A stretch of 64,000 nucleotides of DNA from an uncultured Gammaproteobacteria bacterium (lineage in GTDB: Bacteria; Pseudomonadota; Gammaproteobacteria; JABDGN01), in contig CAXBIY010000010.1 of assembly GCA_963975985.1 (NCBI GenBank), positions 6,476 through 70,475 on the forward strand, written 5' to 3'. This document shows, piece after piece, positions 33,696 through 36,226 of this stretch. Each line of letters starts with the position of its first letter. Position 1 is the first letter of the stretch. The notes beneath the pieces were generated by a model. The model worked only from the letters and a program-made list of their open reading frames with translations. It did not search any database and was not told where the DNA came from. The position numbers and the translations under genes are program-made.

Positions 33696-34916
33696 ATGAT
33701 AACAACAAATATTCACACTGCCAGCTATCGGCAACTGTTCAATATTCATGACAATATTCAACGTCATCATTTAGTCACTTTATCTGAGGCATTAGAAGCC
33801 TTTTGGGATGGCGCAGACATTAAACATTGCCGAAAATCTCCGTCATCACCTATTCCCTATTCTTTCGTGAAAACTAAATGCGGCGATAGGTGGTCAGTTT
33901 TGTTGATCACGAATGTACACGTAGGTTCAAAAGGGAAATTTGGTGTCGTTAAAATTGCGTTACCCATTTTGCGATTCACGGATGCATTTATTATTGATTT
34001 TCCGGCGGCCTGCGCTTTGAAAATCATCCGTGAACAAAGCTCAGCTTTGCCAGCAAACTATGAACAGTCATCAGCTTTCCATGCCATGCAACACTATTAC
34101 CCTGATACAGCGATTCTTACCACCTCTGAGCGCATTAAACATAATGGCCATCGGCTGATTTATATCGCAATGCCGCTTCTTCTGGGAATGGATTTGCAGC
34201 GATATTTAGTAACTTATCCGCACCAGCATACATTACTGCAGTATCTTGAGATTAGCTTAGCTATTGCTCGAGAAGTTGAAAACCTTCATGACAAAAATTT
34301 TGTGCATGGCGATATTAAACCCGAAAATATTATCATAAACACGGCAAACAATACCATGTCCGTTCAGTTAATTGATTTTGATGGCACACTACAATTTAAT
34401 GACGAAAAACTGAAGAAAATTAAAACCAAGGGCTTTTATCCGACCTGGCTAAATGAAAACTATGCTAACGCGGAAACTGATATTTATGCCGTCGCCATTT
34501 GTATAGTCAATATGTTAGGTGGATTGCCCCCCAACTTCCCGAACGCAACAGCTCAAACGATCTATGACCAACTCGGCATTGCTCTTGCTCAGTTTTGGCC
34601 AGCTGGGGTTAACTCAACAATGTTGAGTGCTCAAGTGAAAATCAGAACATTAATTTATGCTATTTTTTTCGACTCCAGTAAAGAGGTGTCAGCTATTCAT
34701 TCGATTGGCGAAGTCGTTGCATGCTTAGATTCACTGATTACAAATATGAAGCACGCACGCTCTCAATTTAGAGCTTACGCAAACCAAACACCATGGCCAT
34801 GCCTCCCTGCATCACCCGTTATAGGACAAATAGAACTACCTCGTAAAGCTAGACCAGCTGCAAATAAGACAGCCCATACAAACTGGATCGAGGATGCATG
34901 CTGTTCGATACAGTGA
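33696..34916 (+). CDS. Eukaryotic-type protein kinase-like protein, paralog 2 (C-terminal CCSIQ)
   Basis: It has GSKGKFGVVKI, ALKII, a catalytic loop VHGDIKPENIII, IDFDGT and TDIYAVAICIVNML. The ATG at 33696 is preferred over the GTG at 33678. Confidence 0.75.
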   Translation: MITTNIHTASYRQLFNIHDNIQRHHLVTLSEALEAFWDGADIKHCRKSPSSPIPYSFVKTKCGDRWSVLLITNVHVGSKGKFGVVKIALPILRFTDAFIIDFPAACALKIIREQSSALPANYEQSSAFHAMQHYYPDTAILTTSERIKHNGHRLIYIAMPLLLGMDLQRYLVTYPHQHTLLQYLEISLAIAREVENLHDKNFVHGDIKPENIIINTANNTMSVQLIDFDGTLQFNDEKLKKIKTKGFYPTWLNENYANAETDIYAVAICIVNMLGGLPPNFPNATAQTIYDQLGIALAQFWPAGVNSTMLSAQVKIRTLIYAIFFDSSKEVSAIHSIGEVVACLDSLITNMKHARSQFRAYANQTPWPCLPASPVIGQIELPRKARPAANKTAHTNWIEDACCSIQ

Positions 34917-34942
34917 ACGACTAAACCAAAAGCTAAACTCAT

Positions 34943-36226
34943 ATGACTCTACCAATCAACACCAGTGACAAATTACCTATTCTTAATGCTCGAACATTAA
35001 ATACCTTTCGTTCGATTGTTGAAAGCAAAAACACATCAACTCTCATTTCAACGTTTGATGCTTTCCTCAACAGCACCAGCGAAAAATTGCGTCGTAAAAT
35101 CAATCACTACGGCCTAGAATTTTCATTAATCAAGACCTATGCTTCTGATTCAGCACTCGAGCCTCCAGAGCTTTTCATTATCGCCCCCATTCGTGTTGCC
35201 GAAGCAGGATCGACAGCTGTGGTGAAAGTTGGCATACATGTAGAGCAAACAGATGCCGAGTACACGCTTAACTTTAAGCAACCCTACGCACTCAAAATCA
35301 TACGCGGCAGAGCCAAAGCTATTCCTACTGATTATTTAACTTCCTCAGCTTTTGCTGCAACAAAAGCTTATTTCCACCCCACCCCCATTACTTTTTTAGC
35401 GAGGCGTGACCCGCCATATAAAAAATATTTAACATTACCTCTGTTGCCTGGCGAAGAATTGTATGCTTTCTTAAACAAGAAAAAACAAACGCTATCCTTC
35501 ATTCAACGCCTTGAAATCGCGCATGCAATAGCGCTGGAACTAGGTAAATTTCATCAGTTGCATTACTGTCATATGGACTTAAAACCTGAAAATATCATTA
35601 TTCATTTATCGAGGGATATTCAAGGCATCATGATTCGACTTATTGATTTTGACCATGCGCTAATACCCGGTAATTCACTTAATAAAACACCTTATGGTAC
35701 TGCCGGGTTTTCAATGACATCTGCTGCACGGGGACAAGGTGTCGCTAAATTCCAACATGACACTTATGCATTTGCCATTCTTCTAATTGATTTATTAAAA
35801 TGCTCTCACGGCCAAACAGCTTCCATTAATTTTGATACCGCAAGTTTCAAACAACGTATGGTGTTCCTCCGCCAACATTTACCTCTACAATTTAAATCTG
35901 ACAGCCATGATTTCTCTGAACACGAAAGCGCGATGCTGGTGACGATAAGCAATTATATTGAGCGAATTGTCACTAACAGTACTTCTACACTTTCACAGAT
36001 AACAACTGAACTTAAAACCTACATTGAGATCATGCAGCGCAACGCAGCCGTATATCAAATATTAGGGAGTTATCGGTCAGTCTTATTAAAGGATCCGATT
36101 GAGTTCCCAGAAAATATTGTTATCCCTAAACACCACTCTAGGCCTCCATCAAGGAGCGCAGAGGAACATCGCCCATTACTTCCACCATCACGGAAATCGG
36201 GCTGCGATAGCTGCGTCATTCTGTAA
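34943..36226 (+). CDS. Eukaryotic-type protein kinase-like protein, paralog 3 (C-terminal CDSCVIL)
   Basis: It has AEAGSTAVVKV, YALKII, a catalytic loop CHMDLKPENIII, IDFDHA and HDTYAFAILLIDLL. It lies only 26 nt after paralog 2. Confidence 0.75.
   Translation: MTLPINTSDKLPILNARTLNTFRSIVESKNTSTLISTFDAFLNSTSEKLRRKINHYGLEFSLIKTYASDSALEPPELFIIAPIRVAEAGSTAVVKVGIHVEQTDAEYTLNFKQPYALKIIRGRAKAIPTDYLTSSAFAATKAYFHPTPITFLARRDPPYKKYLTLPLLPGEELYAFLNKKKQTLSFIQRLEIAHAIALELGKFHQLHYCHMDLKPENIIIHLSRDIQGIMIRLIDFDHALIPGNSLNKTPYGTAGFSMTSAARGQGVAKFQHDTYAFAILLIDLLKCSHGQTASINFDTASFKQRMVFLRQHLPLQFKSDSHDFSEHESAMLVTISNYIERIVTNSTSTLSQITTELKTYIEIMQRNAAVYQILGSYRSVLLKDPIEFPENIVIPKHHSRPPSRSAEEHRPLLPPSRKSGCDSCVIL

Follow-up and report, generated by a model that had tools for sequence, protein, structure and literature searches.

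C-terminal CaaX boxes on two of three tandem kinases of an uncultured gammaproteobacterium suggest prenylation by host enzymes

The 64,000-nucleotide stretch analysed here (positions 6,476 to 70,475 of contig CAXBIY010000010.1, from an uncultured gammaproteobacterium; hereafter the window, with position 1 its first letter) carries a tandem triplet of protein kinase (Pkinase) paralogs, arranged head to tail on the + strand at 32407-36226, as read from the open reading frame (ORF) list and the raw sequence. Two of the three proteins end in a Cys-aliphatic-aliphatic-X (CaaX) box, the type of C-terminal motif that is prenylated by eukaryotic enzymes, and we examined whether these boxes are best understood as sites for lipidation inside a host cell. 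The three genes are as follows:

32407..33627, + strand: kinase paralog 1 (database gene call; mechanical ORF from 32362), 406 aa, ends ...PSLDNLII
33696..34916, + strand: kinase paralog 2 (gene call; mechanical ORF from GTG 33678), 406 aa, ends ...IEDACCSIQ
34943..36226, + strand: kinase paralog 3, 427 aa, ends ...RKSGCDSCVIL

All three paralogs pass the Pfam gathering cut-off for Pkinase (PF00069; 40.9, 60.3 and 47.7 bits against 31.7), and alignment gives paralogs 2 and 3 identities of 32% and 31%, respectively, to paralog 1. The intergenic gaps measure 50 and 26 nt, and a terminator scan found no terminator-like site in either, so that the arrangement is compatible with co-transcription of the triplet. 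A separately assembled contig from ENA metagenome data (L001) matches the window at 100% identity over 11,450 nt (window 32781-44230), a segment that includes both Cys-bearing tails, which are therefore not an assembly artefact. The features of these tails are:

34842..34913, + strand: paralog 2 tail after the final conserved strand, RKARPAANKTAHTNWIEDACCSIQ, delimited by alignment and by analogy to the paralog 3 model
34899..34901, + strand: Cys codon (tgc) directly 5' of the CaaX Cys of paralog 2, candidate S-acylation site
34902..34913, + strand: CaaX box CSIQ of paralog 2 (tgt-tcg-ata-cag; stop tga 34914-16), with Ile at the second aliphatic position (a2) and Gln at X
36131..36223, + strand: tail of paralog 3 (aa 397-427), low confidence, mostly disordered, basic and Pro-rich
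36203..36205, + strand: second Cys codon (tgc) of paralog 3, three residues before the CaaX Cys, candidate S-acylation site
36212..36223, + strand: CaaX box CVIL of paralog 3 (tgc-gtc-att-ctg; stop taa 36224-26), of the geranylgeranyltransferase I (GGTase-I) type

Both boxes have Cys at position -4 from the C-terminus, an aliphatic residue at a2 and, at X, a residue that farnesyltransferase (FTase) or GGTase-I takes under the published rule; the additional Cys is residue -5 of paralog 2 and residue -7 of paralog 3. The tail is missing from paralog 1, which also has no Cys close to its C-terminus; its end coincides with the last core strand (DNLII aligned with ENIVI and GQIEL), and it looks like a kinase core that stops where the tails of its neighbours begin. 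The preliminary description of this DNA, made by a model from the letters and the ORF list, had given these motif endings and their coordinates, the upstream Cys residues and the Cys-less LDNLII end of paralog 1, all of which are exact to the base. Its assignment of Gln at X to farnesylation and of Leu to geranylgeranylation likewise agrees with the published rule, by which A, M, S or Q directs farnesylation and L, I or F geranylgeranylation (PMC9141697). CVIL is a validated GGTase-I substrate by crystallography and genetics: the structure of GGTase-I with the Rap2B peptide (PDB 1N4Q) contains this box, which FBXL2 also carries (PMC9141697), and it is the box of yeast Rho5, with a prenylation gel shift for Ydj1-CVIL (PMC11304957).

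In a structural model of paralog 3, the box terminates a disordered tail some 30 residues long. The AlphaFold2 model (mean predicted local distance difference test score, pLDDT, 80.9; predicted template modelling score, pTM, 0.82) predicts the kinase fold with confidence up to about residue 370, followed by a short strand (392-395), after which the 10-residue block means of pLDDT fall to 49, 46 and 38 over residues 401-427, with values below 50 at 402-406 and 412-427. By analogy with this model, paralog 2 would also carry a flexible tail after the kinase core, giving predicted tails of about 25-30 residues in the two proteins. The best PDB matches in sequence and fold are eukaryotic CAMK, DAPK, DCLK and CK1 kinases, with a Foldseek probability of 1.00 to DAPK/DCLK/CK1 for the paralog 3 model; kinship with Legionella LegK1-4 or LegK7 was considered and rejected, no LegK protein being among the top 60 PDB sequence matches or the top 50 fold matches. 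The catalytic residues are intact in paralogs 2 and 3 (the Lys of ALKII; HGDIKPEN in paralog 2 and HMDLKPEN in paralog 3; DFD). The catalytic loop of paralog 1 is divergent (HRDLRTNH, with Lys replaced by Arg and the Asn displaced); its activity is doubtful on this evidence, and it may be an inactive, soluble pseudokinase partner of two anchored paralogs. No long N-terminal hydrophobic stretch that could serve as a signal peptide or membrane segment was seen by eye in the three translations, and Pfam found no sensor domain in the three paralogs. The three kinases thus appear compact and soluble, unlike typical bacterial signalling kinases.

Orthologs of the window kinases were not found among 5.8 billion proteins. 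A word-indexed search with paralog 3 returned the query only, each of the three kinases forms a singleton cluster whose occurrences are confined to NCBI, Logan, ENA and Tara assemblies, and a profile search of genome contigs with the three-paralog alignment yielded no relatives. Because there are no orthologs, conservation of the Cys at -4 could be examined only in distant family members. These were recovered by a HMMER profile search of 1.84 billion representatives, which split a small family from the generic kinases. Its hallmarks are an N-terminal extension, K-x-S-R-K ... F-S-I-x-K, before the Gly-rich loop, the loop G-x-x-G-V-V-K itself, P-x-A-L-K-I-I and H-x-D-I-K-P-E-N, and throughout the family D-F-D replaces DFG (IDFDHA, IDFDGT and VDFDGA in the window paralogs). 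Identity between the window paralogs and other members is 21-30%, and every member whose source was looked up comes from a metagenome or metagenome-assembled genome (MAG), never from a cultured organism. By these sequence hallmarks, the window kinases are part of an orphan family known only from uncultured bacteria.

Within this family, Cys at -4 occurs in 7 of 20 members compared with 1 of 306 control proteins (Fisher p = 8e-9), and the excess persists when lineages are counted (4/14, p = 6e-6). The box-bearing members end as follows:

P0001 (paralog 3): CVIL
P0002 (paralog 2): CSIQ
P0063 and P0087: NRC-CVIS
P0064: RRRKM-CALL
P0079: ...CRC-CVIL, in a Cys-rich tail, RCCGRCGCLSCRCCVIL
P0066: SG-CQIC

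In a rough neighbour-joining tree these members fall into three of four subclades, in each of which they are mixed with box-less members. Two of them, P0079 (L082 529-2118) and P0064 (L086 1645-3102), are syntenic, each lying downstream of a Trp-repressor gene; the proteins are 37% identical and both end in Cys-a-a-Leu, although the rest of their tails cannot be aligned. The tail of P0079 is extremely Cys-rich and that of P0064 polybasic, so that two different second signals precede a CaaL-type box. The enrichment, the spread over three of four subclades and the CaaL ending kept in the syntenic pair argue that the CaaX box is under selection in the kinase family, whether it was ancestral and kept or was gained repeatedly. 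The preliminary description had proposed to look for Cys at -4 in orthologs, taking orthologs without a Cys four residues from the end as grounds to drop its claim. There are no orthologs to compare; the family-level excess and the syntenic pair give no such grounds, and the relatives that do carry this Cys are all distant.

Other properties of the family concern its evolution. It is prone to duplication: a second tandem pair, P0329/P0327 (L088 8688-11224), is 44% identical and has no CaaX box, and P0004 consists of two family kinase domains fused in 773 aa. The other family-bearing contigs have a GC content of 0.36-0.45 and an unrelated gene order. Synteny of the window with these loci was rejected, only the kinases matching, and the HemC protein of the window is 51% identical to that of L088. 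Scanning metagenomes with a catalytic-loop pattern gave generic kinases only, and the best match of that scan, L090, is not a family member. A profile search of the word-indexed database with a 17-member alignment was likewise dominated by generic kinases. None of the 80 nearest parC loci of other genomes (<=71% identity) has a family kinase beside parC, and the kinase cluster is therefore lineage-specific.

A second short motif recurs in the tails. One instance lies in paralog 3:

36161..36181, + strand: EEHRPLL of paralog 3, which fits [DE]XXXL[LI] and lies 11 residues before the CaaX Cys

A pattern of the form [DE]xx[PS]LL(P), 17-27 residues from the C-terminus, is present in many family members with or without a CaaX box; besides paralog 3 (EEHRPLLPP) these are P0063 (SDAAPLLPG), P0087 (DEDPLLPG), P0064 (SDKTPLLAS), P0079 (ETPLLG), P0060, P0043 and the box-less tandem pair P0327 and P0329 (ENSSLLPE and ENSSLLPK). 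Paralogs 1 and 2 lack it. Within 45 residues of the C-terminus, PLL is present in 7 of 20 family members and in 28 of 306 controls. [DE]XXXL[LI] is the sorting signal read by adaptor protein (AP) complexes and is mimicked by Coxiella CvpA and Cig57 and by HIV Nef (PMC9182567, PMC5176192). As a hypothesis only, adding an adaptor signal to a predicted lipid-anchored tail would make it resemble the cytosolic tail of membrane cargo; an equally good reading of the motif is a signal for export or for a chaperone.

How far the boxes stand above chance depends on the level at which they are considered. Cys makes up 0.9% of residues across the window ORFs, from which the probability that at least two of three paralogs carry Cys at -4 is ~2.4e-4; taken alone, the boxes on these genes would make a weak to moderately strong case. 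It is the recurrence across the kinase family, not the single-gene observation, that lifts the box above chance.

We consider it probable that the boxes are explained by host-mediated prenylation of translocated effector kinases. This reading is favoured because a selected, canonical CaaX box ends a flexible tail on a soluble kinase of eukaryotic type. Export, a host, lipidation and membrane targeting are what we infer from motifs of canonical composition, a disordered tail, a kinase fold, and the recurrence and retention of the box in the family. As a plausible mechanism, the kinases would be exported by a secretion system into a eukaryotic host cell, probably a protist, where host FTase or GGTase-I would prenylate the Cys at -4, Rce1 and ICMT would then process the C-terminal end, and the neighbouring Cys would perhaps be S-acylated. 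The outcome would be a membrane-anchored kinase organised like the hypervariable region of Ras or Rap, while paralog 1, with no tail and a degenerate catalytic loop, would stay soluble. Such modification would have to be carried out by the host, as prokaryotes are without protein prenylation machinery (PMC11152559).

Several observations weigh against host prenylation. The window kinases have no orthologs in which the box could be followed, and 13 of the 20 family members, paralog 1 included, lack it. Canonical-looking boxes are expected by chance about three times per 3000-gene genome on our own rough estimate, and Cys at -4 does arise elsewhere in the window, in a transketolase (CQSV; 26232-28241, - strand) and a ferredoxin/flavin reductase (CFPE; 9256-10269, + strand), as well as in the housekeeping protein MnmE of a related locus (CIGK; L083 16576-17322, - strand). 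The window itself is ordinary chromosome (fba, tkt, hemCDXY, rho, parC, parE, priA, tolC, transporters), and no genes of type III, type IV or type VI secretion systems (T3SS, T4SS, T6SS), no translocation signal and no evidence of host association are visible within its 64 kb. The producer, finally, appears to be a deep-branching, isolated gammaproteobacterium that is not demonstrably one of the Legionellales or kin to known intracellular bacteria. Its ParC (38237-40483, - strand) is at most 71% identical to that of any of 185,579 species representatives (GTDB), the best match being a Lake Baikal 'Gammaproteobacteria' MAG and the next, at 62-68%, Bacterioplanoides, Thalassolituus, Kistimonas, Cellvibrionaceae and others. 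PriA (57576-59741, + strand) is at most 56% identical to anything in the 5.8 billion proteins, with matches at 50-54% labelled 'Gammaproteobacteria', 'Pseudomonadota' and, in one case, 'Legionellaceae' MAG. The organism occurs in assemblies from Tara (marine), ENA, Logan and NCBI. P0063, a distant member of the family, is encoded some 9 kb from the T6SS genes VipA/ImpA, which says nothing about this organism.

Three other explanations have to be set against host prenylation. The Cys at -4 might be accidental and the kinases ordinary intrabacterial signalling kinases whose tails have no lipidation role, as the chance boxes CQSV, CFPE and CIGK in the window and related loci, the roughly three canonical boxes expected per genome, the lack of a visible secretion system or host in the 64-kb window and the box-less majority of the family would suggest. 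Such a coincidence is nevertheless unlikely, given that two adjacent paralogs have fully canonical boxes with an upstream Cys (p ~2e-4), that the family enrichment extends over three subclades, that the box is kept in a syntenic pair whose remaining tails have diverged beyond alignment, and that in the paralog 3 model it sits at the end of a predicted disordered tail. The sequences CQSV, CFPE and CIGK are themselves non-canonical boxes of housekeeping proteins and represent the false-positive background for CaaX scans of bacterial genomes. We regard as quite unlikely a purely bacterial role of the Cys tails in metal binding, as a disulfide/redox switch, or as a bacterial lipidation or export signal. 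Tails that are Cys-rich beyond the box, for example those of P0079 and P0060 (WCPCFSWW), fit such a role, as does the [DE]xx[PS]LL motif common to the tails, which could equally be an export or chaperone signal; the strict -4 position, the a2 residues I/L/V and the X residues L/Q/S/C, however, follow the FTase/GGTase-I rules exactly, and polybasic or extra-Cys second signals (RRRKMCALL, NRCCVIS) reproduce the eukaryotic Ras/Rho arrangement. We know of no bacterial system that recognises Cys-aliphatic-aliphatic-X at the extreme C-terminus.

The box might also be a functionless leftover from the transfer of a prenylated kinase from a eukaryote to a bacterium. Some eukaryotic kinases, among them GRK1, GRK7 and LKB1, are prenylated, and CAMK/DAPK/CK1-type kinases of eukaryotes are the nearest matches among sequences and solved structures. 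Such a relic is very unlikely all the same: identities of about 30% between the paralogs and 21-30% to the family point to ancient or rapidly evolving duplications, through which the last four residues have nonetheless been kept. GC content is much the same in the cluster (0.41) and the window (0.42), all family members lie on bacterial-type contigs, and among the 150 best profile matches none outside the bacterial family has the family-specific N-terminal region, the one match that was checked being a plant kinase. Chance, a bacterial role and a relic each fit the family-wide recurrence, exact in position and composition, less well than does host prenylation.

The surroundings of the kinase cluster add several observations. 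No tRNA genes or Rfam matches were found in the window, and promoter and terminator scans were unremarkable around the cluster. A GDSL-family lipase gene (36265-36882, + strand), with a lipoprotein-type signal sequence by eye (…LLLSACSS…), follows 3' of the kinases after a 38-nt gap and may share their transcript. Next to parC lie a Fic-domain 'mobile mystery protein B' and its helix-turn-helix partner (40572-41186 and 41168-41611, both - strand); in L083 the family kinase P0060 likewise has Fic proteins, together with AAA_14/ATPase_2 ATPases, on its flanks. Two ORFs with an inverse-autotransporter (intimin/invasin-type) beta-domain lie at 50606-53365 and 49562-50404 (both - strand); the larger, of 919 aa with no other recognised domain, may be an adhesin and possibly bears on host association.

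A more far-reaching scenario, which we hold to be possible and rather doubtful, is that uncultured aquatic gammaproteobacteria outside Legionellales inject an orphan kinase family, whose tails would join an anchor of the Ras/Rap2 dual-lipid type (CaaX box and acylatable Cys) to an adaptor-binding acidic dileucine; the triplet in the window would have diverged into one farnesylated, one geranylgeranylated and one soluble isoform, the last possibly a pseudokinase. If this holds, tails imitating those of host membrane cargo would be the sign of a host-associated lineage of marine plankton that has gone unrecognised. Legionella and Salmonella have so far supplied the few proteins for which host prenylation of bacterial effectors is established; should the window kinases be true substrates, the strategy would reach an uncultured marine lineage and the protein kinases, a catalytic class so far absent from reports of prenylated effectors. 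In that case, a short linear motif at the C-terminus would be a cheap genomic marker of a eukaryote-associated lifestyle in MAGs, and the farnesyl-type, geranylgeranyl-type and tail-less paralogs would constitute a natural experiment on how a lipid anchor tunes effector targeting.

Among known systems, the closest precedents for host prenylation are bacterial effectors of Legionella and Salmonella. SifA of Salmonella is additionally S-acylated on a neighbouring Cys, and to our knowledge no Pel protein in the published Pel/CMP lists is a kinase. The Legionella effectors of the Pel/CMP group, AnkB and LseA have C-terminal CaaX boxes at which host enzymes add a prenyl group, and the Cys at -4 is essential for their localisation (PMC13081727, PMC2916131, PMC7542358). 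In these proteins, as in PelE/LegG1, the Cys at -4 likewise lies in a C-terminal CaaX box; however, Pel proteins are Dot/Icm substrates of a known intracellular pathogen, whereas here the organism is a marine gammaproteobacterium with no secretion system in the window. The Legionella precedent invoked in the preliminary description serves as analogy only, the best ParC and PriA matches reaching 71% and 56% and the nearest named relatives being of Oceanospirillales/Pseudomonadales type or unclassified MAGs. In the Salmonella T3SS effector GtgE, a host-prenylated CaaX-type C-terminus strengthens membrane association (PMC13423502); SifA and GtgE differ from the window kinases in their unrelated folds and in that their secretion route is known. 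LegK1-4 and LegK7 of Legionella and CstK of Coxiella are, like the window proteins, bacterial Ser/Thr kinases of the Pkinase fold, and theirs are delivered to host cells, but no specific kinship in sequence or structure links the window kinases to them, and the reviews consulted treat LegK proteins and CaaX boxes separately. Mimicry of dileucine-type sorting signals by pathogens is likewise known from CvpA, Cig57, Nef and Salmonella SteD, whose LLPPSER element is resembled by LLPPSR of paralog 3; in contrast to those cases, the candidate motif is here part of a predicted lipid-anchor tail, not of a transmembrane or soluble effector.

The layout of the tails is that of Ras-superfamily hypervariable regions, in which a CaaX box follows a flexible linker and a second signal, either an upstream Cys or a polybasic patch. 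Sequence and model together display each of these elements: a disordered linker, Cys at -5 or -7 and the box, with RRRKM-CALL and NRC-CVIS among the relatives. The arrangement in paralog 2 is as in 'CC-aaX' tails of the Ras2/PRL type, the CVIL box of paralog 3 is identical to that of Rap2B, and SIQ of paralog 2 resembles NIQ of Rap2A. Within each pair the two members differ in prenyl type, as predicted from the boxes for the window pair. The full tails read ...CCSACNIQ in Rap2A and ...CCSACVIL in Rap2B, of which the window pair ACCSIQ/GCDSCVIL is a close short-motif look-alike. Rap2A is farnesylated and Rap2B geranylgeranylated, and both are palmitoylated on an upstream Cys; the short hairpin RNA target printed in the same study encodes SACNIQ of Rap2A (PMC4159233). 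Swapping the CaaX boxes of Rap2A and Rap2B left function indistinguishable from wild type in a brush-border rescue assay (PMC4159233). The harmless swap speaks against the expectation in the preliminary description that different X residues would send the two kinases to different membranes, which does not follow, since second signals mainly set the destination. The cargo of Ras and Rap tails is a GTPase and here a kinase, and the likeness is that of a short linear motif, not of homology. The comparison suggests a known trick, the mimicry of a CaaX short linear motif by a bacterial protein, here in a new protein family and a new lineage.

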